Positions 4,496-48,242 of a stretch of 64,000 nt of DNA are shown here, in pieces. A program made the position numbers and the translations under genes. The first letter of the stretch is position 1. Each line of letters starts with the position of its first letter. The notes below the pieces were generated by a model, which was not told the origin of the DNA, made no database searches, and saw nothing but the letters and a program-made list of their open reading frames with translations. Source of the stretch: Eledone cirrhosa (taxonomy: Eukaryota); NCBI GenBank assembly GCA_964016885.1, contig OZ024742.1, positions 213,094,001 through 213,158,000 of the forward strand, written 5' to 3'.

Positions 4496-5266
4496 GACAG
4501 GTATTTGAGCCTCTGTGGCTCTTTCAACCCTACGTGATTTTGTGCTTACTGTACGGTACGTGACCGTACAGTGCTGTTGGGTTTCGAAACATTCTTCGGC
4601 TGCCTTGCAGATTGCTCGGTGTCCGGTTTTCGTCACCATCTTCCTTGCTTCCTGTAATTCCTCATTTGTTATAAGGATGGTTTCCAGGTTGTTTGCGATA
4701 CCTGCAAACGAGATTGATTTTTCTTTCTTGTTGTTGTTGTCGTCAGAGCTGCTGTTACTTTTGTTGTTGCTGCTGGTACTACGACCGCCGCCGCCGCTGT
4801 TGCTGTTGGTTTTGTTGTTGATGCTGTTGCTGCTGCTGCTGTTGATGTTGCTGTTGCTGCTGCTGCTGCTGTTGTTGTTTATGCTGCTGCTGATGTTGTT
4901 GCGGCTGCTCCTAGTTTTTTCCTCGCCACTGTTGCTGCTGCTGCTGTTATTACGGCTGTTGCTGCTATTCGTCATGACGTCAGACGAATGAAAATGCTTT
5001 CCGTATTTACCGCACACATCTTTCGTTGTTGTCGTCGTCGTGGAGAAATGTTCCAGGGTACGCGCGTTCTCTTGATGAAGAACGCTACGAGAAACTACAT
5101 TTTTCTTTTTCTTTAATGGCGTCGCTTGCGAAAGAGGCGACTGAGGCGACACCACATTTAGAGAAGGGAGGGAGAGAGACAATCTTTTCTCTGACGTAAT
5201 GACGATTGGGGAAGAAGAAGACGGAGGGAGTGGGAGTGACTTGTGAAAAATCTTTTTTGTAGCCAT
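4493..5266 (-). pseudogene. Tx1 ORF1 N-terminal part (Ser/Asn-rich), truncated by deletion
   Basis: The ISFA..ANN and TVTYRTVS..S motifs match ORF1 of copies 2 and 3 (KISFAQ, TVVFHTIN/TVVFRTVS). The zinc knuckle is missing. Confidence 0.65.
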
Positions 5267-5480
5267 GTTTTTTACGGTTTAAAATGAATATTGGGCACAA
5301 ATCCCCAATAAGCGGTTATTTAACCCAGAAGGGCCAAATAACGGACAGAAAGACCCCTCTCACGAGGAGGAGGGTGTCTTTATCTACAATTTGGTTCAAG
5401 TTTTAAACAATTTACAATTGTTATAACGGTTAAAAATTACAATACCTTACAGAGCCGAGCCTCCGTCAACCATGGCATTC

Positions 5481-7299: not shown

Positions 7300-7760
7300 A
7301 AAGTTTTATTTAAAATTGTTGGGTTACAACAAGTAAATATTTTTTAACTGATATAAAGCACTCGACAAGTTTTTGGAGTAGATATACGATATTAAACAAA
7401 TGGAAACTATATTTATAAAACCATATTTATTTCATTATACATATTTCAGGGATACCATATTAAAAATATGGCATGCCTTCGTCAGATAAAATACAATATA
7501 TAACCAGTTTTATAAATAATTTTGACGTACCATAAATATAGCGACCATTAAGGTAGCTATATTTATGGTCGCTATATTAATGGTCGCTATATTAATGGTC
7601 GCTATATTTATGGTACGTCAAAATTATTTATAAAACTGGTTATATATTGTATTTTATCTGACGAAGGCATGCCATATTTTTAATATGGTATCTCTGAAAT
7701 ATGTATAATGAAATAAATATGGTTTTATAAATATAGTTTCCATTTGTTTAATATCGTATA
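7297..7760 (-). mobile_element. Non-coding PLE pLTR fold-back element, family A
   Basis: Inverted arms at about 7382-7551 and 7590-7760, an unpaired tail at 7297-7381, (TA)n on both sides and an HHR in each arm. Homologous to 22616-22934. Confidence 0.8.
7644..7720 (+). ncRNA. Type I hammerhead ribozyme (mirror copy 7423-7499 on -)
   Basis: Stem I ATATTGTATTTTAT / ATGAAATAAATAT; CTGACGA; about 13-bp stem II; GAAA-TATGTA-TA cleavage site. Confidence 0.75.
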
Positions 7761-7762
7761 TA

Positions 7763-7814
<52 letters not shown>

Positions 7815-14125: not shown

Positions 14126-15130
<1,005 letters not shown>

Positions 15131-18046: not shown

Positions 18047-18132
<86 letters not shown>

Positions 18133-18135
<3 letters not shown>

Positions 18136-20510
18136 AACGTTTGGAGTTAGAATGCTAGAACAATGCAGTTATGGATATAGAATATGAATACAAATGCAAA
18201 AGCTATTGCTGACAATTAGTCTTTTACCTTAAATTTATTTGAATATCCTTAATTTTCGAGATAATATCTCTTCTTCGGAGGTCCCTGCTGGTGGCTTTTT
18301 ATAGAAGCAGGTGGGGATGTCGCCTTCCTCTGAGTTGGAAGTCCAATAGGGATAGGGATCCGCGGTCATCGGGGTATTCCATGCTGAACTTTATATTGGC
18401 GTCCATGCTGGAGAATGTCATGTATATTTTATCCGCTTCTTCACAGGATGATGTAAGCATGAGTATGTCATCTACATATCGGGTGAAGAAGGTATAGGAA
18501 TGCCAGGTGTCGAGGGCTCGGCATTCCAGCTGGTTCATATAAGTGATGGCCAGCTGGCCCGATAGGCTGGATCACATGGGTAATCCTGTTGTCTGTATGT
18601 GTGGTGGTGGAGGTGAAGTACGTGCTGTACACTGTGAAGGACAAAAGTTGGTGTATGTCCGTCGGATGGAGGCCGTAGCAGTGGACGTCTTCTGCGACCT
18701 CGCAGTCCGTCAATAAATCAACAGCTGGATAAGCGGCGACTGTAGTGTAGAGAGAGACATCGTCGAGGCCAAAGGCGTATCTATTTAATTTAAGTTGTTC
18801 TGACTGGAGTTGGTGTAGTCTACGTATGACCTCGTCGGAGCTACTGACATGCCCGGGAAAGGTGGAGAGTAGAGGCTTGAGGACCTGGGAGAGGAGCCAG
18901 GAGATTTTGTATAGGGGCCCTTCTATGCTAGAGACGATGGGTCTTATTTGTGTCTTAGTACTATTCTTGTGGGTCTTGATGAGGTTATAGAAAGTGGACA
19001 GTCTGCTATTTCTAATGGTGTAGTTGAACTTAAATTTATTTGGGAGTTGTCTTCTACTACGGATGTCGAACCAGATGGAGTTGGCCTGTTTTTCGATCTG
19101 GGCTGCAGTTATGTCCGGGACCAACAGTTCGTTGTCGCTTATGTGTTCAAAGGCTAGGTTGTTGTATGTGGCTTGAGAGGCGACACAAAACTCTTTACCT
19201 TTGTCGGATTGTAAAAAGCCGCCAGCAGAGACCTGTTCGTACATTTCAGATCAGCCTTCCCAGTCAGCGCTAAGTTCGGATACATAAGGAACGAACTAAC
19301 ACGTATCCAGAACAAATGCACCGATGCAAGAGACAGGGACATACACACCACACATTTCCTGGAAGTACTTAAACTGAACGGATACCCGACATCCACCGCG
19401 AACCGTGCCAGAAGCAACAGAGGACACCACACCCGAGGCACTAACACTTGCTCCCTGAAGCTCCCACACTTCAGTGACGAAACAACAACAGCCATCCGCA
19501 GAGCTATCAGACGAAAGGGACTAGATATCCAGCTAGCCTACTCAGGACCTTCTCTACGCAGACAGCTAACCAAAAGACACACCACCAGACATGACAGCCG
19601 CTGTCAGCTAGCCAACTGCCCCATCGACGACACAGACTTATGCCACCAGCCTTACATCGTATACAGATTAGAGTGCGACAAATGCAGCAATATCTACGTA
19701 GGTAGCACCACCAGACCACTTCACATTAGAATAAAAGAACACCTCAACACTAACGCTTCCTTATTTAAGAAACACCTACTGAAATGCAAAAACACCGACA
19801 AAAACATAATAGTTAGGATAGAAGCTAAGGAAAGAAACCTCGGCAATCTTAGAATTAAAGAAGCACTTATTATAGACAAAACACAAACCACCAATCAATA
19901 ACAGACTAGAATTCAACACCCAATTTTTAACATGATAGAGCACCTAGCCCCACACTTACACCTCCACGTACCATCTCACACATACATACGCACACACACA
20001 CATGCACGCTTACACCTTCACTTATTCCCTCTCACACACATACATACACACACATAGACCAGTTTTTTACATATAAACATATCCTCTCACACTCACACAC
20101 ACACACACACACACGCACACACACACACATGCTTACACATTCACGTATTCTCCCACACAGACTGAGACATACATGTCGAAACCCTTTTAAAGGGAGACAA
20201 CCCTTTATCCACCTAACCTTCACTCTTTGATATTAGAAATAGAATGGAATTTCTTTACTATTTCCTGTCAGCATGACTTGGCCAGCTAATTAGAACACTG
20301 GATTAACCCCTTTACTTCCCTCCGAAAAAGAGATATTATCTCGAAAATTAAGGATATTCAAATAAATTTAAGGTAAAAGACTAATTGTCAGCAATATCTT
20401 TTGCATGTGTATTTATATTCTATATCCATACCTGCATTGTTCTGGCCTTCTAACTCCAAACGTTTATACCTAACTACGCAATGCTTCAAGTAAACTACAA
20501 TTTCCTCCTA
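18133..20510 (+). mobile_element. Penelope-like element with inverted RT half and inverted pLTR
   Basis: RT (SDKG, IKTHK, IRPIVS, SLYT, RYVDD) is on - at 18282-19210. The thumb and GIY-YIG (IVYRLECDKCSNIYVGSTTRPLHIRIKEH) are on + at 19212-19930. 18133-18281 is the inverse of about 20319-20468. Confidence 0.88.
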
Positions 20511-20519
20511 TATATGATT

Positions 20520-20592
<73 letters not shown>

Positions 20593-20593
<1 letters not shown>

Positions 20594-20965
20594 AAAGAAA
20601 ATTTCGTTCTACGTGGCTGAATACAATAAATGTAATCTGAGTTTTTCGAATATTAATAATAACATTCGATTCGTTTGGAATTTTGGCTATAAAATTGAGG
20701 CTTGTTTGCAAAATTTCAAACGAATCGAATGTTATTATTAATATTCGAAAAACTCAGATTATATTTATTGTATTCAGCCATGTAGAGCGAAACTTCCTTT
20801 TTTATATGAATTTGGCAAAGCCTGCAAATTATCGCTCGTATACAGGAAACTGACTGGTCAGTCTGCTGATATGCAAATCTGGCTGATAAGTGGATCTGCT
20901 AATATGCAGATCTGACTGATCAGCCAGTCTGCTAATATGCAAATCAGGCCGATCAGTCACGGTGT
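20593..20965. repeat. Fold-back repeat D with ATGCAAAT-containing subrepeats
   Basis: Arms at about 20593-20683 and 20710-20803, followed by three CTGCT(G/A)ATATGCA(A/G)ATC subrepeats. Confidence 0.7.
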
Positions 20966-20980
20966 ATTTTTGAAAATATT

Positions 20981-20994
20981 TATATGTGTGCATG

Positions 20995-21044
<50 letters not shown>

Positions 21045-21581
21045 CTACTGTACGTCTGTATACATATATGTATGTACGTATACATACTTATATTTAAGTA
21101 ACAGCCGTACTAAGAGTGAGAAATGAAATTTCGTTTCATTTTTTCCGTTTATCGTTTTCGGTACCCCGGCCGATTAACTCACTCGATATGCAAATTAGGC
21201 TACTCAGCCGTTAATATGCATAAGGAAAGTATATACTTTCAGACGTTCAATCATCTGGCAGGAAGGTATACGGTACTGACGATAGCTAATAAGCTTGAAA
21301 CTAGTACAGCATTCCTTTGTCAGTGTTGAACAAATGAGCAACGATGGTTGCTAGACACTGTACGGCTTAATTCGGGATGTTTGTTTACAAACACACCGAG
21401 CATTATAATAAATGTTCGGTGAATCCATACGTACATATATATATATATGTGTGCATGTATGTATATATATACATACTACTGTACGTCTGTATACATATAT
21501 GTATGTACGTATACATACTTATATTTAAATACCAGCCGTACTAAGAGTGAGAAATGAAATTTCGTTTCATATTTTCCGTTT

Positions 21582-21586
<5 letters not shown>
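20981..21586 (+). mobile_element. Short non-coding element with ~150-bp terminal direct repeat and internal HHR (retrozyme/pLTR-like), family K
   Basis: 20981-21150 is repeated at 21441-21585. CTGACGA-T-AGCT/AATA/AGCT-T-GAAA-CTAG-TA at 21276-21306. Confidence 0.65.
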
Positions 21587-22615: not shown

Positions 22616-22618
<3 letters not shown>

Positions 22619-22930
22619 GATATTAAACAAATGGAAACTATATTTATAAAACCATATTTATTTCGTTATCTTTTTAAATGGAAGTTGCATTATTCTAAGA
22701 TATGTCAAAATTATTTATAAAACAGCTTATATATTGTATTTTGTCTGAGGAAGGCATACGATATTTTTAATATGATATCCCAGAAATATATATAACGAAA
22801 TAAATATGGTTTTATAAATATAGTTTCCATTTGTTTAATATCGTAAACCTGCTCCAAAAACTGTTGAGTGCTTTTATATCAGTTATAAAATATTTACTCG
22901 TTGTAACCCAACAATTTTAAATAAAACTTT

Positions 22931-22968: not shown

Positions 22969-22973
<5 letters not shown>

Positions 22974-24240
22974 GATAACAAAATATCGTTATAGGTAATC
23001 CAATTTATAGGTAATCCAAGTTGTGAATACTTCTTATTATGGATAGTTTTAGCGCACGGCGTTGCTTGACTCAACAAGAGGTTTACGTAGATGACGAGTT
23101 TATGATTTCACTTGTATCCCTATGTAAGTTTATCTTGGAGTAATAAAATTGAAAAAGTGGAGAATAACATGGTCAACAGTACAAAAAAGAGGATTTATTT
23201 GCAATCTAACAATTGTTTCACTGATAGAGTTGTCTAAAAATTGCTGAACACTAAAAGTAGTGGCACTCTTTGATGTAATTTGAATTTGTAAATTTGCCGG
23301 TTACATATATATTTTTTTAACAGTTTCCGATGATCTAATAGAGTTAACATCGTGTTTAAAATTGAGTGGCACTACTTTTAGTGTTCAGCAATTTTTAGAC
23401 AACTCTATCAGTTAAACAATTGTTAGACTGTAAATAAATCTCCTTTTTTGTACTGTTGACCATGTTATTCTCCACTTTTTCAATTTTATTACTCCAAGAT
23501 AAACTTACTTAGGAATACAAGTGAAATCATAAACTCGTCATCTACGTAAACCTCTTGTTGAGTCAAGCAACGCCATACGCTAAAACTATCCATAATAAGA
23601 AGTATTCACAACGTCTAATTGGATTACCTATAACGATATTTTGTTATCCTTTACACCAAGCTCCCATTAGGTTGAGCAACCAATTTAACGCACGGCACTA
23701 ACATGGAAAAACACTAGATAGGAATGTCCTTAAAAAACATACCTATACTTTCAAATAAGGAATATATGCTCGGTATGATACAAAGAACTAATGACTTTAT
23801 TCGTAGAATCAGATGGAAAGCATATCATTACGATAAAGGGCATTATAATAGTGATAGAAATAATGGGTCTACCAGTGAAAAATATGGGTTTAGATCCTGC
23901 ACAAATCCACGAAGCAACCCACAACTTGATGCCTTTGAACTTTACCTCATGAACATGATAAAAGAAATTAAATTAAAAAAACGAACACATCATAACAAAC
24001 TGCAAAATAACATCAATGCACTACTAAAAAAGTTACGTAGCACCAACGGTATTATAGTAAAGGCAGACAAAACATCAAATGTATACACCATGAGCCTTAA
24101 TACATACAACAGCTTTATACGCCGGGAATTACATAAAAAATACAAGAAAACTACAGAATCTACACTCAATAGCATTAACAAGGAAGGTCTTAGCATAGTA
24201 AAAAAACTTAAAATATCCGATAGAAGAGAACCTCCAACCG
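22969..24240 (+). mobile_element. Naiad-like PLE: 300-bp fold-back pLTR running into the ORF N-terminus
   Basis: Arms at 22969-23268 and 23364-23653. ORF 23724..24275 reads MSLKNIP..FIRRIRWKA..VKADKTSNVY and is homologous to 38420 onward. Confidence 0.85.
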
Positions 24241-25081
24241 CTTGTATAGCTTTAGTTAAACTATATGGAAAATGACAACCTGTGATTTGTATGGTTGTTG
24301 TATATATATATATATATATAATATACTTGTGTTTGGAAAAGTGGAATGATAGGGAAATGAGCGTGTGTATATATATATGTGTGTATAAATGGGTAGATGG
24401 ATAAACTTATAAACACGTACATACGTACATCTATGCATACATGTATACACATACATTCTTACATAAATGCATACATAATTCTTACATGCATACAATCATT
24501 CACACATACATTCATACATACATACGTTCATACATACATACATACATATGCACATTCATACATAGATTCATACAATCATACATACATTCATACATGCATA
24601 CGTACATTCATACGCACACACGCATACACACGCGGACACACACATATAATGGACAAGGACCCCCCACCAAAAAAAAAAAAGAGAAAAAGACAAATACGGT
24701 AAATTTAAAGAGGATATTCGTTTAGTGTTCAGAGAAAAACAATCATTAAATGGTAAAGAGAAGAAGAAAATAATTATGAATAAAAAAAGAAACCTGGAAA
24801 ATGTGTATATTGTGGCTAATGCAGTTTGTATTTAGTTACTGAGTCAATGTATATAGATATATAGATTTCTTTATTTACCATAAAGGCATAAAAAAGAAGG
24901 GACAAATACAAAGGGGGAGTTTACATACAATCGAGTAAAAAGGGTATGAAATTAAAATAATCGAAAATAACCTTAAAAGGGAGGGGACGTGATGGGGGTT
25001 GCACACACCCCCGAAAAAGTGTGCAATCCTTTGCCCGGGGAGCACATGGAGAAGGTGCTCCCCTCTCCTTTACTTCTTTAC

Positions 25082-28000
25082 CTACAGGATGGTATACAGA
25101 GAAGGCCCATTTACACGAGCCATTCTCGCCACTATCACCCACCTTTCATAAAACTGCCTGTGGCCAAGCACCTCTCTCTCCATTCTTATCCTTCTTCCGA
25201 AGTGATATCGGAAGAAGTAGACCAGACTATGGCCAGAGAGGAAGTTGCCTGACTTCAGACCTTTCAATCGTGTCCACCAAACAACCTCTTTCAACATGGC
25301 TATTACGCACAGAAAAACCGCCTTTGCTTCCTTTGTGAAGAGGGGAGGCGGTTTGATTGTCATCACGGACTCGGCGGTCAATTGAATCGGCGCCACCCGC
25401 GATAGCAGTCGTTCGGCGTAGCCCCACAGATCAGCCACGCCCGGACATTGCACCAATGCGTGCGCAACGGTTTCTTCGTGACGCACGCATCTAGGGCAAA
25501 TCTTTTTTGAGGGATCCCTGCCCGGTCGCCCGTGTCTGTAGAGCCTCTCTCGAACGGGTAGAGCCCCTCGGTAGCACTGCCAGGCCAGTGACTTCTGGAA
25601 GTTGTCCATTGGTCCTGGGCCGAAAGTCCTACCGAACAGGCTGGCCAGTTCGTCTTCTTCCATGTCCAGCGACTCTCCAAGGGTGTCATCGCCCCTGCTA
25701 GCCACCAGCCCTCTATAGAATGATGAGGTGGATTCTCCACCGATGGCCTGGCCCGCTTGCCAGAGAGCCCTGAGCGCCTGAGCACACTCAGTGTGCCAGT
25801 CTCCCAGTTTTCCGGATCTTTGCTTGACCCAGGACTGTAGCTCGGTGAGCGAGACGAGTCTCGGAAAGGCTCGTTTCACGAACAGAGCCCACACCGGTTG
25901 ACCAGTGAGGAATACCTGTAGGTGCCGTAGCCTTAATGCGTGCCTACGCATCATCAACCACGGCATCCCCAGCCCTCCTTTCGAAGGTTGTTGGCAGCAG
26001 ATGGATCTTCTCACCATAGGAGGGCGCTTCTTCCAAAGAAATTGGAAGAGTATGCGTTCCATGGTGGTGAGTGTTTCCTTAGGGCAAGGCACGACAGTCA
26101 GGCGGTAGTAAGTGACGGACGCTATGTAAATGTTCGCAAACCTCCGCCCGGCCTTTTAGAGACAGCTTACACATGGCCCATTTCTGGGTTAGTGCAAACA
26201 CCTTGTTCGTAACCTCGTTCCAGTTCTTTTCCACCTGGAGGTCCGGTCCAAACCAGACCCCAAGCAACTTTACCGGGCCCTCCGTCCAGTGTCCGACGAC
26301 ACCGTCGGGAGGCATCGGTCTGCCTCTCCACGTTCCGAGTTGCAGCCCGATGGATTTTTCCCGGTTCAGTTTCGCTCCTGACAACCTTTCGTAATCCTCC
26401 AGTAAGGTACCGATCGCCTCGATCTCCGAGTCGGTCGATACCATTACTGTTACGTCATCGGCGTAGGCCGACACCGCTTTGCTCAATCCTGGTTCCAGGG
26501 GGATACCCTGCAACAACTCCAACTTCCTCAGTAAAGGCTCGAGAGTCAATACGTACAGAAGGGAGGAGAGAGGGCACCCCTGTCGAATGGATCGTGTGAT
26601 TTCGAACGGCTTCGAAAGGTAGCCGTTCACCTTGATCCTAGAACAGATGTGGTTGCTATGTAAGGCAGTGATCCAGCCTCTGAAAACAGGACCGAACCCA
26701 GCCGCCGTTAGCACCGCATCCAGGTAACCATGGTCGACCCCATCGAAGGCCTTAGACTGATCCAAGTTGATCAGGGCCCTACCGAAGCCGGGTTTGTTGC
26801 CAACACTCTCTATGATGTATCGCATGAGGTAGAGGTTATCGTGAATGGACCTGGATGGGATAGCACATGTCTGCGCATCTCCCACCAGGCCACCCACGAC
26901 AAGCGCCAACCTCTTTGCTAACACCTTCACCAAAATCTTTAACTCTGTGTTTAGCAGGGTTATGGGCCGAAAATTATTTATACTATCTCCCTTGTTCTCG
27001 TCCTTCCTCACCAGCGTGACTACGCCCTTGGCTACAGAACAAGGAATTCTCCCGTTCTGCTGCCAATTGCAGTAGACCGCTTCGAGGAGTTCGGAGAAGA
27101 AGACCGGCATTGCTAAATAAAGTTCGTAAGGTATACCATCGAGACCTGGAGATTTGCGTCTGCTGCATTGGCTCAGCGCATCTCCGATCTCATCAGCCGA
27201 GACTGGTCCCTCGCAGGACTCTGCCTCTTCGCTCGAGAGACGCGGCAGGCCGTCGAGGTATGGACCGAAATTCACGTCCCCGCCCGGACCCTCGCCTCCC
27301 CCGAACAATCGGGCAAAGTGCCTTTGAAAGGCCTCGCACATCTGCTTAGGCTCCCGGATAACCCGTCCATCTTCGTCTTGCAACGACCGGATGGTGGATC
27401 GATTTCCACTCTTAGCTTCTGTCACGCGGGCCCAGCCAACGGCTTTGGCCCCCTCATTACCTAGAGCACGTATTTTACTTCGAATGACGCAGCCTTCGTG
27501 CTTTGCATCGAAAAACTGGTTCAAGGCCGTCCTCGATGCCAGCACTCTGGCCACATCTTCGCTCTTGATTGCCTCTTCTAATTTACCTGTTAATTCTTTC
27601 TCGTTTCTATTCCTATCGGCAGCTAACATCTTGCTATAACTTATTGATTCTGTTTTAATCTCTCTTTTCAGAGATGCCCACCATCGGTTGTTGACGATTG
27701 CACCCCTCAACTTCTTCTTAACTAATCTGCTAATCCGGTTTCTGTAAGTCTCTTTTGCCGGTAAAGACAAATTAAGTTTCCAGTAACCGGGACCCTGTTT
27801 ATGTGTTTTCTCGAGATTGACTACGCAGGTCAGTAATTTGTGATCCGTGTAGCCAACCGTGCGCATTTCTGGACAGCTTAATATGTCCCTATCCTTACTT
27901 CTAACTAAGAATCTATCTAAGTACGATCTAGATTGACCACTGTGGTTTCTCCAAGTCCAGGTTGGCACAGTTGGAAAATCTAGTCGATATCTATCGACTA

Positions 28001-28521
28001 AGTTAAAACGGTCGAGTAAACCCTTGAGGCTGTTACACCCCCCTCTATTAGGACATGCTCCTGCATAGTCCCAACGTGCATCTAGGATGTCATTCCAATC
28101 CCCCGCTAGAAGCAGGGAACGCGACGTTCCCAGAAAAGTCTCTAAACGCTGGAAGAAGTCGGGCCGTTCAGCTCCGAAAGGGGAGTAGACGGCGACCAGT
28201 CTTAAGGCCGCACCTTCACTACTGCCAACGTCTAGCACCAACAAACGACCCCCCCGGGACCGAGTGCACAACCTGTACGGCAAGACCCAGGTGTTTTTGC
28301 AGCAGTACGACAACCCCACCCCCACCTCCAGGTTGACAGAGAGATGCATGCACCTCAAAGTCATCGAAGGTAGGGGCCAGCTGCCTCACGACGCTGATCT
28401 GAGTCTCACAGATAACCATTACATTTATACCACATGACCTGAGGTCATTTAGAAGCTTTGCTTGCTTTCAAGTCGAGCCCAGGCCACGTGCATTCAAACA
28501 TCCTACTCTTAACACATCCAT
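25082..28521 (-). pseudogene. Tx1 ORF2 (APE endonuclease, RT, Zn finger), few frameshifts
   Basis: Starts MDVLRVGCLNARGL. Contains ICETQ, AGDWN, SYLDRF, TDHK, RQGCPLS, AYADD and CPRC. Confidence 0.9.
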
Positions 28522-30499
28522 GTGGGCGGCAGAGCCAAAGGAGAGTGTAGAGACCTACCTTTCCGCTTCCCGGGGTTCGGGTCGCACGACTTCCATGGGG
28601 TCGGGGGTGTTGGGTGAAGGGGTGTCTTGTGGTAGTGTGGGGTCGTCAGTGTGTGGTGGGGTTGGGGTGTTTGGAGTTGTGTTGGGGAGGGGAAGGGGCG
28701 GGGGAAGCTTTTTAGTAGGACGCGGTTTATGGGTTTGACAGAGGGTGGTCCTACATCCTCCTTAAAATCCTTTTTTAGTTTTTGGTAGAGGTTCATTGGG
28801 ATCTTTATTAATTTTAAATGGGCGGTGGATTGGCAGTATCGGTAAGGGTCGGACGCCATGCTTTGAAGCATAGAGTTACCTCCCTTTATGATCTGAGTTC
28901 AAATCCCGCCGAGGTTAACTTTGCCTTTCATCCTTACGGGGTCGATAAAATAAAGTACCAGTAATGCACTGGAATAATTGCTGGCCTTGTGCCAAAAGTA
29001 GAAACAATTAATTTTAAATGTGGGTAGTTTTCTGAAGAAACAAAGTTTACACCTTCGGTTTGTACCGAGTTTATGAGTTCATTTAATTTATTATTGTTTC
29101 TGTTGATGTAAGTATAGTGTAATGTCTTTTTTTCGGATGGTGTGAGTGTTTCGAAGAGGGGAGGGGCAGGTTTGGTTTTGTTTGTTGCTGGAGGGGTGTT
29201 TTCTGTTTTATTGGATTGTGTTGACATTTGGGTGAGGGTTGTTTGGCCTTGTGTGTTTTGCACATGTTTTCTTTTTTTCCTTTTAATCTGTCTGAAGGAC
29301 TCCGTTTCTTCGTCCGAATTCGTTGGGTTATCTTCAGTGTTGGGGGGAAGAGGTATGTTTGCTGGTAATGTTTCCGTGTTGGTTTTCTTTGTGGGGGAGA
29401 TGGATGTCACTATGTTAGACTGTGTTGTGTGTTGTGTCTGTGGTGGTTGTGTTGTTTTATTGAGTGAGGGGTTGGGTGGGCCTGTATTTTGTTTTGGGGT
29501 AATGTGTTGTGACTGTTTGTGTTGTGGTGGTGGTGTAGTTTTACTGAGGGACGGGTTGGGTGGGACTGAGTTTTGTTGTTTGTTTATCTGTTGTGGTGGT
29601 GGTGGTGGAGCTGGTGTTGGTAGCAGGTTTTCTTTTTGTTGAGTTGGGGGCAAGCGGCCTTCAGGTGCCCTCTGCCTGCACAGATATGACAGGATGGCCT
29701 TCTCCCCTCCACGCTAATGTTTATATACCCGTGGCCCTCTAATAGGATTCTGTCGGGTATTTGGGCGATGCGTTCAGGCTTCATTTGCACTACCAGCTCT
29801 ATACCTGTTCCACTGAACGCATTGCCTGTGGTTTTTCCAATGGAAATCACGTTGTCATTCACTGGATCGATGAAGCCAGCTATGAGCCAGCAGTACTCCA
29901 CATCTGGCATCATTGCATCCAGCCATATGCGTTGAGTTCTTTTACCCATATAAGATGGATAAAAGGTAACATTTTTCGAACGAATCGGTGACAAAGCACA
30001 TTTTTTTTGCCGCCGATTCGTTCTTCATGATAATTGCTAGGCTTCCATACAGTCTGTCTTTTCTTATGAAAGTGGTTTCATTAAGTACTTCTGTGAGTAC
30101 TGTTTTGATATCTGCCTGAGTTGGCTGTTCAGGTTTTTTTGAAGTGTTGTTAATGGTGTGGAACACGACCGTTCGACTTTCAATGTCTTTGGTGAGTTCT
30201 TGAGGCATTTTAACCGATAAAATACCATTCTCTCCTTCACTTATGTATTGTTTGGCGTCTGTGATTCTTCGTGCGACATCTGAAATATTTTCGGGTATAT
30301 ATGTCAAAGATTTCTTTGTTTTTTGTGCAAATGAAATCTTGTTGACTCTGTCGTCTGCTTTGCTTTCTGTTATGTTGTTTTCAAATGTTATTTTTGTGTT
30401 TGTTGTGTCTTTGTTTGTGGTATTAATATTGTCATGCAACTTTTCAAATTTTTTTTTTTTCGTTGTTGGAATCCATGTCCAGATTTGTGTTTTCGTCAT
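28509..30499 (-). pseudogene. Tx1 ORF1 (CCHC knuckle), frameshifted and SINE-interrupted
   Basis: VEGRRPSCHICAGRGHLKAAC zinc knuckle and a Pro/Thr-rich tail; homologous to ORF1 of copy 3. Confidence 0.8.
28821..29006 (+). mobile_element. SINE inserted into Tx1 ORF1 with 14-bp TSD
   Basis: ATTAATTTTAAATG at 28807-28820 and 29007-29020. Confidence 0.9.
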
Positions 30500-31399
30500 T
30501 TTTCTCCGCAGATTCGTCTGTTTTTATTTTGTTTTTTCCTTCCTTCTCTATGACGTTAGTTGGGAAGGAAGGGGGGGGGGGACTAAAGCGTGCGAGCTTA
30601 CAACTCTTACCGCTGTCCCCCCACCACTGTTTTCGTTCGCTTCGTTTAACATTTCTGTCAGACGATTGAAACATTTTTTTTTTTTTTGCCACAAAATTTA
30701 AAAAAACAGGTTTTTCACCTCTAGGAGGGGTAAATATGGGCTGACCCACCGTCTGACAGTTCAGACGGGGTGTCAAGCTACACAATAGTATCAAAATTAA
30801 ATTTGAACTCACAAAATTTCCGCAATAAATTTGAACAAAACTTCTGCGCGAAGTGAATTACATCCACACTGTAGAACAGACGACAGCTAGATTCAAACAA
30901 TGTATATAGATATATAGCTACTTAGATATCTTTGCAAAGACATAGCTGTTGTAGAAAAAAGAGCTAGAATAAAGGGAGATAAATATTCAGAAGTTGCAGT
31001 GTGAAGATGCAGCTCAGTGAGTGTGCACTCAATGCGTGTGTGGATGTTGGGTGTTTAGAGGAACTATGGCTGCGCGTTCAATCTGCGTGAGCAAGAGGTG
31101 AGGATACCAAAAAAGAATTGTTGTTCATGGCTTGATTAGACACGTCATGGAGACAGATTTCTAATATGCTTAATTTGTTGGTTGAATGTCTGTGAAACCG
31201 AAGGTAGTGGAAGATGGAGGAATTGTCTGCGAGGCGAATCCCACGGGGGTGTTCGGCGGAGTGATCTGACAGCTGGTCTACGTAAAGTGCAGGAAACAAC
31301 GAGCATCTTAACCACTAGACTAGGTTAGTGGGGTGCAACTAAAGGAGTCTGAAATGTGGAAGATGAGACTGTTCACCGAAGATGTTGTTCAGACACCCT

Positions 31400-37107: not shown

Positions 37108-37279
<172 letters not shown>

Positions 37280-37979
37280 AGATTTGAATGGATACAGTTT
37301 AGTTGAAAGGAATTTACTGACACGTGTTTCTATAACAGTTACATAACCTGAAAACAGCTGATATCTACAAAGTATTAGTTATGCAGACATTCAATATTTC
37401 AATGTTATTATTTACTGTCATTTCATCAGAATAATATTACTGAGGACCTGTTTGGTTTTTATAGAGAATATTAGGAGGGAGGGGTGAAGTTGTTAGAAGA
37501 ATAGTTGAGGGAGTGGTTTTTTGATAGCAGTGAGAATTTTTGGTGGCAGTGAGTAATTAGATTCCCATCTGTTGTTTTGACATTTTTATAGAATATATTA
37601 TTGGTTATTTTTCTAAATCTATAGAAGGATTAGAGATAGTAAAGATATGCATGGTTGGTTTTGTGTTTGCACTTAATTAACATTCAGACTTAAATTTTTC
37701 TTTCAAGTGTACGTATCCTATCACCCACGCATTCACACACAAACATATTTGCACACCTCTACAAAATACATATACTCACATTCACATAGTAACATGTTCA
37801 TACTTACATACATATACACATGCATACATATATATACACACATGTATTCATGTACATACATACGCGTTCATGTGTATACATTTTTATACTCAACTTATCT
37901 TTATATACACACGTATAGACACACACATATATACATACATACTCTAGTCTATGTGTATATATATACATATACATATATA

Positions 37980-38059
<80 letters not shown>

Positions 38060-38411
38060 CACTTTAATACATGAATACACTTACATCTAACTATACATAT
38101 CAAACATATATATATATGTACTTATTTATATATATTTTCACACATATATATACATACTTATGGTCGCTTTTAGACACATTCATTATCGCATTTTTGTACC
38201 TATTCTCATCAGCATATCTTTCCATTATTAGTGTGGTAATTTGAGGTTATTAATATACATATATATGTTGAGAAGAGATTGTTTTTATATTTTTCTAACT
38301 AGATTGAGGTTTATATAGTTGGGGGGATGTCCCTCTTTTATGTAATATTCGGCTTGTAGTGGGAAAAAAGGGTTTTAGTTCGGTGACGGCAAAAAAGGGT
38401 TTTAGTTCGGT

Positions 38412-40411
38412 GACGACCTTAAAAACACCAAAGGAATTGTAGTAAAAGCGGACAAAACATCAAACCTGTATACTATGGATTGCACTACATACAACAACTT
38501 CATTCGAAAAGAATTACATAAAAAATATAGAAAAACGAATGAAGTAACTCTTAAGCACATCAATGATGAGGCATGCGAAATAGTGAAAAATCTCGGAATC
38601 GAAGATAGGACAGGACCACTCTTACCGGCGGTACCCACCTTCAATCTTAAGGACCATAAGGTAAACTTTGATAATGTCCCTAAAATTAGATTAATCTGCC
38701 CCTCTAAATCAGATATAGGTAAAATAAGCAAATATATCTTAGATAGAATCATCCCCCAAATTAAGGCTAAGGTTAACATTAAACTCTGGGGGAAGACCCA
38801 AGAAGCAATAAGATGGTTTAATAGCATTAGCAATAAGAATAAATCTAAGTTTATCCAGTTTGATATCGATGAATATTACTCATCGATATCACCTGAAACT
38901 TCGAATAGAGCCATTAAGTTTGCTAAGGATAACTCTGACCTTACAAACGATGAAATTAAGATTATATTAGAAGCTAGGAAAACTATAGTCAAATTTGAGA
39001 ACAGTTATTGGTTACGTAAAGATAGACCCACTAACTTTGACATAACAATGGGCTCTAACGATTCAGCGGAAATAACTGATATTGTGGGGTTATTTATCAC
39101 CTTTAGACTCCAGGAAAATTTCAGCAATCTCCACGGCGGAATATACCGCGACGATGTTCTCCTCCTAGTTAAAAACCTAAATAACCAAAAACTAGAAAAA
39201 CTACGCAAAGATATAAAAAAACTACTACTCGAAATAGGACTAACTATAACATATGAATACAACCTTAAAGTAGTTAACTTCCTGGATGTCACACTCAATT
39301 TAAACTCTGGTCTGATTAAACCGTTTCATAAATTGAATGAAAATCTCAAATACGTAAATGTTGGGTCTAACCACCCCATCTCTATAATTAAATCTATCCC
39401 TAAAAATATTTCCCTTAGAATCTCGGGTCTATCTTCTAACATACAGGTATTTAAGGAACACGCCGAGTACTACGATAACGCCCTTAGTAAAGCAGGCTAC
39501 CTCAACAAAATAGAGTATATAGATGGGAACAATCAAAACACCCAAAATATATCCCACATAGGTAGATATAATAACACAACACCAAACCACACTTACTACC
39601 ATAGTATGCACACCAGTAAACCAACAAACAAAACTAATAGAAAGCGATGCAAAGAGTACTTATGGTATAACCCCGAATACAATAGTTCCATTAGTACAAA
39701 TTTACCAGTACTCTTCTTTAAAATAATTAAGAGACATTTTCCTACATCACACACATACCACAAAATCCTAAACCCTACCACTATAAGACTGTCATACTCT
39801 ACAGCGTTAAACCTTGAACAACACATAAAAAAGATCAATACTAGAAGGTTAAACGAAAACACTAAAAACTTAAGTACAAAGAACACAAAAAAACAGTAGA
39901 CAATACACTACAGAACATAAATAAACCACACCTAAGTTCGTCCGCAATACTACTCCAGAGAAAACCCAACGTACACAACTGTAACTGCACCTATCCTGAC
40001 AACTGCCCCCTCGGCAATAACTGCCTGGAAAAAAAAATTATTTATAAGTGTACCATTAAATCCGGAGGCAACGAGTGGTATTACGTGGGATCAACGGCAA
40101 CATCGTTTAAATCTCGATTATATAGGCATTCTTACTCAATAAAACACCAGAGCCAAAGAAATGTAACAACTTTAGCAGAAAAAGCTTGGACGCTCAGGGA
40201 TAGCGATCAAAAGTTTACTCTAAAATGGGAGAAATTAGCTAAAACCCAAAGCTTTTCCAGGAGCCAAAATTTCTGCAAATTGTGTAATCTTGAGATTTAT
40301 TACATAATCACACACAAGAAGAAATTGCTGAATAACAGAATTGAACGAACATTATTCTGCCGTCACCGAACTAAAACCCTTTTTTCCCACTACAAGCCGA
40401 ATATTACATAA
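38412..40411 (+). pseudogene. PLE RT + GIY-YIG endonuclease, 5'-truncated, disrupted near 39899
   Basis: LKDHK, RLICPSKS, QFDIDEYYSSI, TMGS.DSAE, GIYRDD, NFLDVTL; CNC....CP...NC; IIYKC..YYVGSTAT.FK.R. Confidence 0.9.
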
Positions 40412-40687
40412 AAGAGGGACATCCCCCCAACTATATAAACCTCAATCTAGTTAGAAAAATATAAAAACAATCTCTTCTCAACATATATATGTATATTAAT
40501 AACCTCAAATTACCACACTAATAATGGAAAGATATGCTGATGAGAATAGGTACAAAAATGCGATAATGAATGTGTCTAAAAGCGACCATAAGTATGTATA
40601 TATATGTGAAAATGTATATAAATAAGTAAATATATATATATGTTTGATGTGTATAGTTAGATGTAAGTGTATTCATGCATTAAAGTG

Positions 40688-40773
<86 letters not shown>

Positions 40774-41320
40774 TATATATGTATATGTATATATATACAC
40801 ATAGACTAGAGTATGTATGTATATATGTGTGTGTCTATACGTGTGTATATAAAGATAAGTTGAGTATAAAAATGTATACACATGAACGCGTATGTATGTA
40901 CATGAATACATGTGTGTATATATATGTATGCATGTGTATATGTATGTAAGTATGAACATGTTACTATGTGAATGTGAGTATATGTATTTTGTAGAGGTGT
41001 GCAAATATGTTTGTGTGTGAATGCGTGGGTGATAGGATACGTACACTTGAAAGAAAAATTTAAGTCTGAATGTTAATTAAGTGCAAACACAAAACCAACC
41101 ATGCATATCTTTACTATCTCTAATCCTTCTATAGATTTAGAAAAATAACCAATAATATATTCTATAAAAATGTCAAAACAACAGATGGGAATCTAATTAC
41201 TCACTGCCACCAAAAATTCTCACTGCTATCAAAAAACCACTCCCTCAACTATTCTTCTAACAACTTCATCCCTCCCTCCTAATATTCTCTATAAAAACCA
41301 AACAGGTCCTCAGTAATATT

Positions 41321-41364
41321 ATTCTGATGAAATGACAGTAAATAATAACATTGAAATATTGAAT
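41321..41364 (+). ncRNA. Hammerhead-like motif in pLTR (mirror about 37390-37433 on -)
   Basis: ATT-CTGATGA-AATG...CATT-GAAA-TAT-TG-AAT. G at position 17 may block cleavage. A second half motif GAAA-CACGTG-TC lies at 41423-41434. Confidence 0.5.
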
Positions 41365-41605
41365 GTCTGCGTAACTAATACGTTGTAGATAGCAGCTGTT
41401 TTCAGGTTATGTAACTGTTATAGAAACACGTGTCAATAAATTCCTTTCAACTAAACTGTATCCATTCAAATCTTTCTATTTTTCTCCGGATTACTTTTGG
41501 AACTACAACTGGAACCGTCGAGCAAACTCTACGTGAGCTGTCAATCTACTCTGTGTAATATTTATATTACAACACAACGGAAAATACTGTATATATATAT
41601 ATATA

Positions 41606-42268
41606 TAAACAATTAAGTTAAAAATGTACATCTACATATGCATACTGAAATACTAGTGTGTATATGAATACACACACGTATACATATGTAGGTGTACCAA
41701 GTCTTTCACTGGTCGCTTTACAGTGAGCGGCCCAGCTATTCTGTATGTAAACACACAGACAAACCGGTTTTTAGAGTCATACTGGTTTTTCGGGGGAACA
41801 CCTTCCCCCTATTCTCCAGAAAGCCAGACAAGGAATATTGAACTAGTTTCGTTGTTGTTACAACTCATCAGCAATATTTACCTATCTACCGGCCTTTCTG
41901 GAGAATTGTGAAAGGCCGGTAGATAGGTAAATATTGCTGATGAGTTGTAACAACAACGAAACTAGTTCAATATTCCTTGTCTGGCTTTCTAGAGAATAGG
42001 GGGAAGGTGTTCCCCCGAAAAACCAGTATGACTCTAAAAACCGGTTTGTCTGTGTGTTTACATACAGAATAGCTGGGCCGCTCACTGTAAAGCGACCAGT
42101 GAAAGACTTGGTACACCTACATATGTATACGTGTGTGTATTCATATACACACTAGTATTTCAGTATGCATATGTAGATGTACATTTTTAACTTAATTGTT
42201 TAAGCGTCAGTCATACAAAAGTGAGTTACAAACGAAACGAAATTTAATTTCGTTTCGTTATTTGTTTT
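41606..42268 (+). mobile_element. Non-coding near-perfect palindromic HHR element, family H
   Basis: 293-bp arms at 41606-41898 and 41910-42202 with one visible mismatch, an 11-nt spacer, a 66-nt tail with a hairpin, and (TA)n flanks. Confidence 0.88.
41930..41974 (+). ncRNA. Canonical minimal type I hammerhead ribozyme (mirror 41834-41878 on -)
   Basis: AATATTG-CTGATGA-GTTGT/AACA/ACAAC-GAAA-CTAG-TT-CAATATT: 7-bp stem I, 5-bp stem II and a palindromic stem III loop. Confidence 0.9.
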
Positions 42269-42474
42269 TATATATATATATATTTATCTATCTCTGGGAT
42301 GGACACACGCGTGAAACTTGCTGGGTAAGTTCTGCCTAAATTTCTATAGAAACTCTTAACTGTGAACCTTCATTTTTATACCAATTTGTAGAGGGACTGC
42401 CAGGTCAATATTCTAAGCCTTTAGGCGAAATAGTTCATAAAATTTTTTGGGACAAACCAACATTTAAAAAAAAA

Positions 42475-44354
42475 ATGGCTGAAGCTTCTTCACCAACATT
42501 CGAAGGAGGAAAGGGGAAGATATGCTTACAGCTTCCCCCTACCACTGTCATAGTAGCAGATGTCAAAGACAAAGGTCAGCAAGAGGAGGGTCTTCTCCAC
42601 CTGCTGACCGACAACTTGACGTTGCCATGGCAACAAACCAAAAGCAAAAGTGTGAAACAAAAAGTGTGAAACAATGAACAAAAACAACACAACCAGTGGC
42701 ACCAGCAACAACAACAACAACAACAACAAAGCTATGAACGAAAATAACACCAACAACAACAAGACCAATAACTGCAACAAGGAGGTAAACGACAAAATAT
42801 CGTTTGCGCAAACCGTAAAGAAAACGGTAAGCTACACTCCGGTAGATATTTCATATGCAAATGAGCTTTTGAATAACGCCAGACAGTACATAACTTTTGG
42901 AGAGACGGATCATTCTCCATAAACTCTCCCCCAGATTTGCGAAGAGAAGCTGCTTTGAAAACTGTGGTTTTCAGGACAGTCTCAAACAAAACCCGAAAAC
43001 CGACTCAACTTTCACAAGGCGAAATTGAGTTGGTTTTAGAAGATGCCTTAAAAGACATTGCTTTCATTCAGAAGGGTAGACTCTTCGGGAGTTTATCCAT
43101 TCTGATGAAAGACCAACTGACGGCACAGAAATATTCTGTGTCGCCAATTGTATCACTATTGTTCACCTTTTTCCCCACTTACATGGGGAAAAGAACACAG
43201 AAAATAAAAATCCAAAGTATCACACCAAATATTGATATTTGGTGGGTACTATGTGGATTTTTAAACCTCGAAAAAGACTCAATAATATCGGTAGGTAAGT
43301 CCTCCGGCGACCTGTTCAGCGGAACTAGCCTGGAAGTTCTGGTCCAAATGACACCAGAACGAATAGCTAGGATCCCGGAACGTGTGCTGCTGGATGGGCT
43401 TATATACATAATCATTTCGGTCGAGGGTAGGCGGCCCTATTGTTACCACTGCCTAAGCAGGGGTCACCTGAGAGCTTCCTGTCCTCGGCTAACTAGCCAA
43501 AAAAAGGCATTACTGCCAACACCTGCAACACCAGCACAACAATCACCACCACCACCACCACCACCACCACCACAACAACAACATAAAAAAAATAGTGACA
43601 ACAAAACAAACGACAAACACAGTCCCACCCAACGCCTCCCCGTCTAAAACAACTCCAGAAACACCCACACACATAACATCTCCCCAAAATGTACCCCTCC
43701 CCAACAACACGGATGAGGCCTCATCATCGCCACCCAGTGACGATGAGGGGAAGCCTTTCCGACCAGTAAAAAGAAAAAAGAAAAGACATAACACAAACAA
43801 AAATGCAACAAACACACAAACACCAACACAAGCGACGCAAACAGCACAAACAAAAACACCCCCTCTTGAAAACAAAACACCTACTACAAAACGTAAACAC
43901 ACACAAGAACCACAGACAAAAAGCAACACAACAAAAATGTTACACCTACATAAATACTAACAATAAAACTTTAACAGACACCATAGGGAAAACCGAAGGG
44001 AAAACTTTTACGCACTCTTCGGAGAATCCTAATCTTAAAATGATTAGGATCTCCATGGACACACATAAACAACTAAAAGAAAAATTTCCTAACGTTGTAG
44101 GTACCCCCTGCGTCAAACCCTATAACTGCGTCCTTTTGAAATGTTTCCCCACCCACACCCCAGACACTCCCACCCCAGACACCAAAACCCCACCTGACAC
44201 CCCCTCTCCACCAAACATCTCCGTCTGTCTCCACCCCGCCAGAGACCACCACCCCACCAAACAACCCCTCCAACACCCCCATGGAAATTGTGCAGCCTGG
44301 TCCCCAGGAGACGAAGAGGTGAGTGATTTCTTTTCCTCTTCTTTTAACTTTTAA
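42475..44354 (+). pseudogene. Tx1 ORF1 (CCHC knuckle), frameshifted
   Basis: VEGRRPYCYHCLSRGHLRASC; colinear with ORF1 of copy 2. Confidence 0.8.
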
Positions 44355-44362
44355 GCACCAAC

Positions 44363-47300
44363 ATGGCCAATATAAGAGTTGGATGTGTGAATGTACGCGG
44401 CCTGGGGATGCCCTGGAAACAGGGCAAACTCTTAAACGACCTCAGGTCGCACAGTATGGATGTAGTAGCCATTTGCGAGTCCAGGATCCACAGCGAGCGA
44501 CAACTGGCCCCCAACTTCGACGACTTTGAGATCTACGCATCTCTCTGTCAGCCGGGAGGTGGGGTGGGGTTGACGCTTTGCTGCGGAAACACCTGGACCT
44601 CGTAACACAGACGGTACATCTGGACCCGGAGGGTCGACTGATGGTCCTAGACGTTGACGGTAGTGAAGGTGGAGCCTTCAGGCTGGTGGCTGCATATGCC
44701 CTATCCGGGACACCGCGGCCAGACTTCTTCAAACGTCTAGAGACTTTTCTGGGAACGTCCCGCTCCCTGCTGTTAGTGGGGGAGTGAAATCGAATCCTAG
44801 ATGCACGTTGGGACTATGTTGGAGCATGTCCCGATAGAAGGGGGTGTAACAGCCTCAAACAGTTAATCGGCCGATTTCAACTGGCCGATAGATATCGACT
44901 AGATTTTCAAACTGTGCCACTGTGGACGTGGACCAACTATAGCGGAACATCTAGATCGTACCGAGATAAGTTTCTATTTAGATTTAGTGATAGGGGCATG
45001 TTAAGCTGTCCACAAATGTTCATGGTTGCCTATTCAGATGACAAATTAGTAACCTGCTTAGTCAACCTTGACAAAACCCATAGACAGGGGCCCGACTACT
45101 GGAAGCTGAACTTGTCGTTACCGACATGCAAAGCCTACAGTAGACGGATTAGCACTTTAGTTAAGCAGCACTTGACGGGGGCCATTGTCAACAACAGATG
45201 GTAGTACTCTCTCAAGAGGGCAGTTAGATTAGACTCGATATGTTTTAGTAAAGAATTAGTGTTAGATAGAAATAAGACCGAAAAGGAACTGGTAGATAAA
45301 GTAGAAGAGGCACTTAGGAGTGGCAACGTAGCCAGCGTGCTAGCGACGAGAACGGCCTTGGACCAGTTCTTCGACGCAAAGCACGAGGGCTGCGTTGTCA
45401 GGAGCAAAATACGTGCTCTGGTAAACGAGGGAGCCAAAGCTGTTAGCTGGGCCCGAGTGACGGGGGCGAAACGTGGCAACAAGTCCACGATTCGATCTTT
45501 GAAGGACCAAGACGGACGCGTGATACGTGAGCCGAAGCACATGTGCGCAGACTTTCTGCGGCTCTTTGCTCAACTGTTCGGGAAGGAGGGCACGCTGGGA
45601 GGGGCTATGGATTTCGGTCCATACCTCGACAGCCTGCCGCGACTCTCGTACGGTGAGGTGAAGTTCTGCGAAAGGCCAATTTCGGCCGCTGAGATAGGGG
45701 ACGCACTGAGCCAATGCGGCAAACGCAAATCTCCAGGTCTCGACGGTCTACCCTACGAATTTTACGTAGCAATGCCGGACTTGTTCTCCGGTCTCCTGGA
45801 AGCGATCTACTGCAACTGGCAGCAGAACAGGAGAATTCCCAGTTCTGTGACCAAGGGCGTAGTCACGTTAATCAGGAAGGACGAGAATAAGGGGGATGAC
45901 ATAGGCAACTTCCAGCCCATAACTCTGCTAAACACAGAGTTTCAGATTTTGGCCAAGGTGTTGGCAAAGAGGCTGGCGCTTGTCGTCGAAAACCTGGTGG
46001 GAGAAGCGCAGACATGCGCAATCCCAACTAGGTCCATACACGACAACCTCCACCTCATGCGATACATCATAGAGAGGGGTGGGTGTAAACCCGGCTTCGG
46101 TGGGGCCCTGATCAACTTGGATCAGTCTAAGGCTTTCGATAGGGTTGACCATCGTTACCTGGATGCAGTACTCGAGAGGCAGGCTTCGGACCCGTGTTCA
46201 GGGGCTGGATTGCTGCTATGCACAGCAGCAACTTCTGCTCAAGGGTCAAGGTGAACGGCTACCACTCGGAGCCGTTCCATATCACGCGATCCATCCGACA
46301 GGGATTCCCTCTCTCCTCCCTTCTGTACGTACTGACTCTCAAGCCACTACTGCAGAAGTTGGAGCTATTACAGGGCATCCCTTTGGAACCGGGACGGCGA
46401 AAAGCGGCGTCGACCTACGCCGACGACGTAATAGTAATGGTGTCGAGCACCTCGCAAATCGGGGAGGTCGGCACCTTACTGGAGGTATACGAAAGATTCA
46501 CAGGAGCGAAGCTGAACCGGGGCAAATCCGTCGGTTTGCAACTCGGAACGTGGAGAGGCAAACCGATGCCTTCCGATGGCGTCGTCGGACGCTGGACGGA
46601 AGGATCGGTAAAGCTGCTCGAGGTCTGGTTTGGTCCGGACCTCCAGGTGGAGAAGAACTGGAACGAGGTGACGGCCAAGGTGTTTGCGCTCACCCAGAGT
46701 GGGCTGAGTGCAAACTATCCTTGAAAGGTCGAGAGGAGGTGGCGAACACTTTTATAGCGTCCATCATCTACTACCGCTTGACCGTCGTGCCTTGTCCTGG
46801 CAAAACGCTCACCAAAATGGAGCGCGCGTTCTTCCAATTCCTTTGGAAGAAACGGGCTCCTTTGGTGAGAAGATCCATCTGCTGCCAACACCCTTCAAAC
46901 GGAGGGCTGGGGATACCGTGGCTGACGATGCGCAAACACGCGCTCAGGTTGCGGCACCTCCACGTATTCCTCACCGGACAACCGGTGTGGGCCCCGTTCG
47001 TGAGGTGATCCTTCCCACGACTCGTCTCGCTGACCGAGCTGCAGTCCTGGGTCAATCAAAGACCGAGGAAAATGGGCGATTGGCACATCGAATGTGCTCA
47101 GGCGCTCACAGTCCTCCTTGCAAACGGACCCGGAGATCAGTGGAGACTCCACTTCGTCATTTTATAGAGGGTTGGTCCGCAGCAAGTGCGACGACGCGCT
47201 CGAAGAAACTCTAGGCGTAGAGGAGGACGAACTGGCCAGTCTGTTCGGTAGGATCTTCCACCCGGGACCGATGGACAACTTCCAAAAGTCCCTGGCCTGG

Positions 47301-47816
47301 CAGTGCTACCGAGGAGCTCTACCAGTTCGAGACAAACTCTACAGACACGGGCGCCCAGGCAGGGACCCTTCGATAAAGATCTGTCCGAGATGCGTGTGCG
47401 ACGAGGAAACCGTCGCGCACGCATTTGTACACTGCCCGGGTGTTACCGACCTGTGGGCCTATGTAGAACGACTATTGTCGCGGGTGGGACCAATCTAGTT
47501 GACCACCGAGTCCATTGTCATGATCAAACCGCCACCCTCCTTCAAAAACGAGGGAGAGGCGGTTTTCTTATGTGTTATGGCTATGGTGAAAGAAGTTATA
47601 TGGTGGACGAAGTTAAAAGGGCTGAGGTCAGACACCTTTCTCTCCGGCGAACAACTGATTTATTTTTTCAAATATCATTTTGAAAGAAGAATCAGGAGGG
47701 AGAGAGAGGTGCTGTACCCCAGCAAATTTTATAAAAGGTGGGTGAATGTGGCAAAGATGGCCCGAGTGGTTGGGCCTTCTCTCTATACAAGCCTATGTTG
47801 GTGCTCCTGGAGATGA
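44363..47816 (+). pseudogene. Tx1 ORF2 (APE, RT, Zn finger) with multiple stops and frameshifts
   Basis: MANIRVGCVNVRGL start; KSPGLDG, DQSKAFDRV, TYADD and CPRC. Confidence 0.9.
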
Positions 47817-48242
47817 GGGTTGTACATATTTTAGGGGTGTGTACAACCCCTGTGTAACGCCCCCCCCCCTACTGGGGATTTCAATTGTTATTTGTTATTT
47901 TATTAATAGTTTTATTTTCATATACCTGTATGTAAACTCCCCATTTATATTTGTCCCCTTCTTTTGTGCCCTTGTGGCTAATAAAGAAATTTATCTATCT
48001 ATTTGTCCGCCTGCCTGTTTGTCTGTCTATTTATCTGAGTGTCTGTCTGTCAGTTTGTCTGAGTGTCTGTCTGTCAGTTTGTCTGTCTATTTACCCGCCT
48101 GCCTGACTGTCTGACTGTCTGTCTAACCGTCCACCTGTCTGCCTAATGTCTAATCTCTTTTCCAATTTCTGTTATGTCAGTCACTAAGACTCTTAAAACT
48201 TCTTTTAAACTCTGCTCCTTTTCACCAACACACGCACGAACA

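Follow-up and report, generated by a model that had tools for sequence, protein, structure and literature searches.

The palindrome at positions 41606–42268 of the window (the whole stretch of 64,000 nucleotides of Eledone cirrhosa DNA that was analysed) very probably consists of two head-to-head copies of the end of a hammerhead-bearing repeat family, likely the product of a single 5′-truncated insertion by the machinery of a Penelope-like element (PLE). The sequence-only reading of this DNA had described the palindrome as a special hammerhead unit and named no PLE context; a truncated insertion of PLE type explains every part of the locus.

Architecture of the palindrome and its flanks

Alignment of the two arms (41606–41898 and 41910–42202, 293 nt each, with an 11-nt spacer) confirmed the near-perfect 293-bp palindrome with one visible difference that had been described from the sequence alone. 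The arms match at 292 of the 293 bases, the sole mismatch being A41991 against its mirror C41817. The element is ordered as a (TA)n tract, an inverted copy lacking a tail, a direct copy, a 66-nt tail and a second (TA)n tract (Table 1). Within the tail are a hairpin (42231–42259) and, at 42221, a GTGAG that resembles a splice donor.

Table 1. Features of the palindrome and of the two related or adjoining elements (positions in the window; a dot marks features given without strand)
Feature	Positions	Strand	Basis
Distant relative of the hammerhead family, ORF-less partial tandem, period ~431 bp	20976–21586	+	alignment
Hydra-clade-like PLE, different family	37274–41589	+	TA, inverted copy 37274–38394, frames 38406–40411, 110-nt tail, TA
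(TA)9 tract on the left side, likely the target site	41590–41607	.	common to 3′ end of neighbouring PLE
Inverted 5′-truncated copy of the element's 3′ end, no tail	41606–41914	-	native family sequence through centre to 41914
Mirror copy of the type I hammerhead (C3 at 41871, predicted cleavage at 41841)	41834–41878	-	own descriptor, Rfam HH9
5′ strand of predicted 13-bp outer helix I extension, pairs with 41811–41823 of the same strand	41894–41906	-	left copy folded in own sense
5-nt microhomology common to both copies, the junction	41910–41914	.	complement of 41894–41898
Direct 5′-truncated copy, right arm	41910–42202	+	arm alignment
Type I hammerhead	41930–41974	+	own descriptor, fold, Rfam HH9
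Conserved 7-bp hairpin, not a hammerhead	41999–42016	+	family reads, fold
Unpaired tail, 66 nt, follows right arm only	42203–42268	+	arm alignment
(TA)7 tract, right flank	42269–42282	.	

Four structural features of EN+ PLEs were recognized. An inverted 5′-truncated copy adjoins the direct copy; a tail is present at one end only, with a length of 66 nt compared to the published 30–40 bp; TA tracts, which are frequent in the window generally, lie at both ends; and the hammerhead belongs to a dispersed multi-copy family, as expected of one within a pLTR. For PLEs, the relevant part of PMC8557442 describes an inverted 5′-truncated copy, a tail at one end, a bias towards TA in insertion and hammerheads in the pLTRs, and gives a bias for (TA)n in Hydra and Naiad PLEs. 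The corresponding part of PMC4209133 reports dual hammerheads of Schistosoma 100–700 bp apart on opposite strands and relates most dispersed hammerhead motifs to truncated PLEs. By these four features, the locus behaves at the sequence level as a truncated PLE insertion would. No RT or endonuclease frame linked to the hammerhead family was found in the window or in the aligned family records, and blastn of the arm against the window matched only the ORF-less relative and no coding parent.

The palindrome had been called very young. With 1/293 mismatches (Poisson range for the divergence, 0.01–1.9%) it is young, but it is not distinctive among the inverted repeats of the window. Five of eight other aligned repeats, the neighbouring PLE counted and the 16.2-kb palindrome left out, were compared statistically: three had 1/170, 2/282 and 9/1116 mismatches (Fisher p = 1.0, 0.62 and 0.70, respectively), and two had the higher values of 11/290 and 4/84 (p = 0.003 and 0.01). 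The identity of the arms could also stem from conversion.

Family copies in public reads and the centre of the palindrome

Four of 24 runs were aligned to positions 41100–42700, namely the contig sets X1 and X4 and the raw RAD run X23 from one organism, and the contig set X5 from another. The region was matched by 1388 X1 contigs, 74 X4 contigs, four X5 contigs and 4515 X23 reads, with the arms covered in all four sets; summed contig depths were not taken as copy numbers. The element is a multi-copy, dispersed repeat family. No description of this family was found among the papers searched, and the supplements of PMC8557442 and PMC4209133 may list it.

In all four aligned sets, records follow the window through 41914 and then enter one shared upstream sequence, which the window lacks at this place. 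Ends leaving the window behind 41914 were present in three X1 contigs, one X4 contig, one X5 contig and 246 X23 reads. The inverted copy therefore continues natively, in the 5′ direction, through the centre and, since 246 X23 reads exit at this point, the palindrome is not the usual form of the family. The sequence-only reading had taken the centre as a copy of the start of a second hammerhead-like unit, produced by a template switch. The match itself holds, as the 13-mer at 41894–41906 is the left-arm version of 41985–41997, but the switch is unsupported because the centre is native. The two stretches resemble each other because, by prediction, they pair and extend helix I outwards by 13 bp. 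The junction corresponds to a native 5-bp stem with an 11-nt loop; the arms join at the microhomology and a switch to a distant site is unnecessary. No contig among those listed for the four read and contig sets spans the exact junction, and no read bridges it, so the junction rests on the assembly. X1 also gave three joints within the palindrome, each from a single contig, which were set aside as likely mapping effects of the mirror.

The hammerhead in each arm

The hammerhead of the right arm has a helix I of 7 bp, CUGAUGA starting at 41937, a helix II of 5 bp, GAAA and the loop CUAG, with cleavage predicted after U41967. The full type I core (C3UGANGA9, G12AAA, U16.1-H17, helices I–III) is present. 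Our own descriptor thus recovered the 7-bp stem I, the intact core, the CUAG loop and the predicted site that had been read from the sequence. When the descriptor was run over both strands of the 64 kb, four sites were returned, two in this palindrome and two in the palindrome at 7379–7764; none of 100 block-shuffled windows gave a hammerhead site with helix I of at least 7 bp and helix II of at least 4 bp. The Rfam model Hammerhead_HH9 (RF02275) matched both arms (E = 3.4e-8, 38.6 bits; gathering score 52), and no match in the Rfam search of the whole window reached its gathering score. The miRNA and sRNA matches from that search were rejected as hairpin matches far below their gathering scores. 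Exact-pattern scans for the hammerhead region found 0 loci in viral, metagenome and prokaryote genome contigs, as expected because the region belongs to an animal repeat.

Within one molecule helix III is unfavourable, with a cost of ~6 kcal/mol for forcing A15.1-U16.1. The self-complementary 8-mer at 41960–41967 is available for an intermolecular helix III, and two 45-mers fold through it as a double hammerhead at -17.0 kcal/mol, compared to -6.8 kcal/mol for one. The expectation that a short palindromic stem III would act in a dimer agrees with this predicted fold, in which helix III forms best between molecules. Metazoan PLE hammerheads are described as cleaving poorly on their own in the part of PMC4209133 that concerns them, or as requiring the element's own protein (PMC11167929, relevant part). 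For the family hammerhead the prediction is weak cleavage, either in a dimer or aided by protein.

The sequence-only reading had staked its hammerhead on other genomic copies conserving the stems, and copies that keep helix II are present. In family copies, one pair of helix II, 41945:41956 (U45-A56), is A-U, a compensatory change. The two substitutions, 41945 T>A and 41956 A>T, were carried by 37/37 and 42/42 minus-strand X23 reads and by 14 and 10 X1 contigs, respectively; the variant X23 reads begin at only two and five places, and these counts are of sequences and not of events. These were the only two variants inside the hammerhead among 40 of the 178 variant rows, from which invariance of the catalytic core is not established.

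A degenerate second hammerhead had been proposed at about 41989–42020. This was not borne out by the sequence of 41989–42025, in which CUGANGA is absent on either arm and no cleavage triplet follows the GAAA, and neither the descriptor nor Rfam gave a hammerhead match there. G42017, the G of this GAAA, is lacking from the X4 and X5 contigs and from 226 of 240 X23 reads, but from only ~14% of the X1 depth at that place. A type III hammerhead was rejected on inspection, as helix I has no room. What the family conserves is the hairpin at this place. Its pairs 42000:42015 and 42003:42012 are A-U in most X23 reads and G-C in the window, and the mirror positions of those two pairs (41793, 41796, 41805 and 41808) are variant in 219–321 of 226–323 X23 reads. 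The hairpin is also kept at the corresponding position in the relative at 21.3 kb. Given the paired changes in both, helix II and the hairpin are structures kept across the copies.

The ribozyme within the full palindrome

The two hammerheads lie on opposite strands and face away from each other, so any one transcript carries only one in sense, and read-through from either direction makes the antisense arm first. In a single arm the pair probabilities were 0.98 for helix II and 0.66 for helix I, compared to 0.00 on either strand of the full palindrome. Read-through RNA from either direction is thus predicted by folding to form a 293-bp duplex that would bury the ribozyme. The hammerhead at this locus is likely a passenger inherited from the family. 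Because the palindrome is predicted to sequester helices I and II, and because published PLE hammerheads are weak alone or protein-dependent, the locus is a poor candidate for a ribozyme in vivo. The family motif is a fair candidate in vitro, but the special status that the sequence-only reading implied for the locus is not supported.

Other elements in the window

Remains of LINEs and PLEs abound in the window. The PLE that adjoins the palindrome on the left is nearly full-length and has RT and GIY-YIG-like frames with a frameshift between 38406–39899 and 39866–40411, and a 1.1-kb inverted copy identical at 1107 of 1116 positions with a 27-nt duplication at the junction (38361–38414). Its motifs DKT, YRDD, CxCX5C, CxxC and CxH match the Hydra clade as defined in the relevant part of PMC8557442. 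Pfam gave no family for the two frames, and the assignment is based on the motifs, together with an Atlas lead of 0.97 for which 28% of members have HTH_animal. In blastn of the arm against the window this PLE shared no sequence with the palindrome. A degenerate hammerhead lies within it, near 41325–41365. A second Hydra-like remnant with RWK and DKT motifs was observed at 22969–24275, following an older inverted repeat (279/290).

The distant relative of the hammerhead family at 20976–21586 has a degenerate hammerhead with the same loop, the long helix I, the second hairpin and a similar tail, and 0/1000 shuffles reached its alignment score, for body and tail alike. Adjoining it is a 33-nt tandem (20857–20959, 21188) with octamer motifs ATGCAAAT, which may resemble the snRNA-type promoter of newt satellite 2.

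The palindrome at 7379–7764 (arms 169/170 identical) belongs to a different family, with one hammerhead per arm, a long AT-rich helix II and a loop with TATGTA; a related copy lies at 22616–22845 (22.7 kb). Another palindrome at 14158–14798 has arms identical at 280/282 positions, TA flanks and, by eye, hammerhead-like half motifs in the centre, and its 38-nt tail resembles the end of a PLE at 18132–20520. The splice-donor-like GTGAG occurs in the tails or ends of PLE-type inserts at 42221, 41533, 21547, 21116, 15078 and 16242. Of eight stretches checked, six had the motif; the plus strand of the window has 99 GTRAG sites in all. The motif may mark where the 5′ intron of PLEs begins. Also present are three LINE copies that are related (69–78% identical) and broken (42283–48002, 24853–30700 and 1622–5278), the first of which starts directly after the right TA tract of the palindrome.

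Formation of the inverted copy and alternative explanations

A mechanism is available from the Poseidon element, for which the relevant part of PMC11167929 reports that the purified PLE cuts both strands of AT-rich DNA and extends them, and that its RT starts at two sites whose interval corresponds to the tail. By analogy, we infer that the same two-start mechanism applies to the hammerhead family. The PLE endonuclease would nick both strands of the TA tract, and reverse transcription would begin at two points, the end of the tail (42268) and a position 66 nt inward that matches 42202. Each cDNA would terminate close to the outer base of the long helix I; the two would anneal at the 5-nt microhomology, and repair would then fix the mirror repeat. 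The same plan is found at 14158–14798 with its 38-nt tail and in the ORF-bearing neighbour with its 110-nt tail. Tethering of two RNAs by hammerhead dimers was also considered as the cause of the inversion. It is disfavoured by Naiads, which form such inverted structures without canonical hammerheads (PMC8557442, relevant part), and by hammerhead mutations that leave insertion in vitro unimpaired (PMC11167929, relevant part).

A tentative possibility is that the inversion arose by self-priming, with a single cDNA folding back on the native 5-bp hairpin and copying itself. The junction has such a stem with its 11-nt loop, self-priming is favoured for PLE inverted junctions in the relevant part of PMC3846280, and the arms share alleles where most reads differ (for example 41793, 41796, 41805, 41808 and 41888). 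However, common alleles fit two RNAs from one source locus just as well, and a plain fold-back alone explains the one-arm tail less simply than two RT starts with extension of both strands. An origin outside retrotransposition is quite improbable, whether as a fold-back artefact of the assembly or library, through later rearrangement of the DNA or as a DNA transposon of fold-back or MITE type. The arms are near-perfect and no aligned record bridges the junction, as such an origin would have it, but the flanks differ, the tail is on one arm, TA tracts mark the outer ends and the arms contain a mismatch. Moreover, the plan recurs at other loci whose arms diverge by up to 5%, and the 246 X23 reads exiting at 41914 also argue against it.

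Truncated insertion by PLE machinery leaves the nature of the parent to be considered. It is somewhat doubtful that the parent is a retrozyme-like ORF-less unit of ~430–470 nt moved in trans by PLE protein and not the 3′ end of an autonomous PLE; such a parent would refine the PLE-insertion reading and is compatible with it. In its favour, the window's only relative of the family is a partial tandem, repeating every ~431 bp, that lacks an ORF and is colinear with the right arm and tail, and 30 letters of native upstream sequence resemble, by eye, the upstream hairpin of that relative. Retrozyme monomers are described as tandem units of ~300 bp with type I hammerheads (PMC7229834, relevant part), and retrozymes have been argued from phylogeny to derive from pLTRs (bioRxiv 10.64898/2026.07.22.740005, relevant part). 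The relative is, however, a single example that may be an internally deleted PLE, and it has one hammerhead and not two in tandem. The joints listed for the four aligned sets, for positions outside 42229–42298, include none that is head-to-tail. Most improbable is the special unit of the sequence-only reading, with two tandem hammerheads per arm, a template switch and dimer cleavage, perhaps circularizing. The first hammerhead is well formed and the dimer fold is predicted, but the centre is native, the second unit lacks CUGANGA and a cleavage triplet, and the real hammerheads are on opposite strands.

Comparison with known systems

As far as the relevant parts of PMC8557442, PMC4209133 and PMC3846280 describe them, the EN+ PLEs (Hydra, Neptune, Penelope/Poseidon) share with the locus the head-to-head inverted 5′-truncated copy, the tail at one end, the TA target, the type I hammerhead with a palindromic loop 3 near the 3′ end, and pairs of hammerheads no more than a few hundred bp apart on opposite strands. 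They differ in that the hammerhead family has no ORF as far as seen and a tail of 66 nt, not 30–40. In the minimal PLE hammerheads of Schistosoma, helix I is given as 4–5 bp, whereas here its 7 bp continue into a long predicted stem. The type I topology and extended helix I are also those of the Rfam model Hammerhead_HH9, which aligned over its whole length at a score below gathering; the hammerhead is not assigned to that Rfam family.

Animal non-LTR retrozymes, as presented in the relevant parts of PMC7229834 and bioRxiv 10.64898/2026.07.22.740005, are alike in being non-coding, as the family is as far as seen, in low GC and in a type I hammerhead likely working as a dimer, and the period of the relative (~431 bp) is a further likeness. 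In retrozymes each unit carries a hammerhead, the units are repeated head to tail and circular RNA is made, whereas the locus is head-to-head; the relative is a partial tandem with one hammerhead.

Significance

The head-to-head arrangement of hammerheads has already been described in animals, and the locus is likely one more truncated PLE-type insertion, of which the window has several. It is a clean specimen, in that the family hammerhead is intact and short enough for assay. Its arms meet at a native microhomology of 5 nt, a resolution that is informative about the origin of inverted repeats in PLEs. Such insertions would seed near-perfect RNA duplexes of 300 bp, plausible substrates for RNA editing or small-RNA pathways. 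It is rather unlikely that the hammerhead family is an ORF-less RNA of ~430–470 nt whose insertions bear all the marks of a PLE (TA target, one-sided tail and inverted copy). If true, animal retrozymes and reverse transcription by PLEs would be linked directly at the genomic level, and young palindromes of the ORF-less unit could separate twin priming from self-priming at base resolution.
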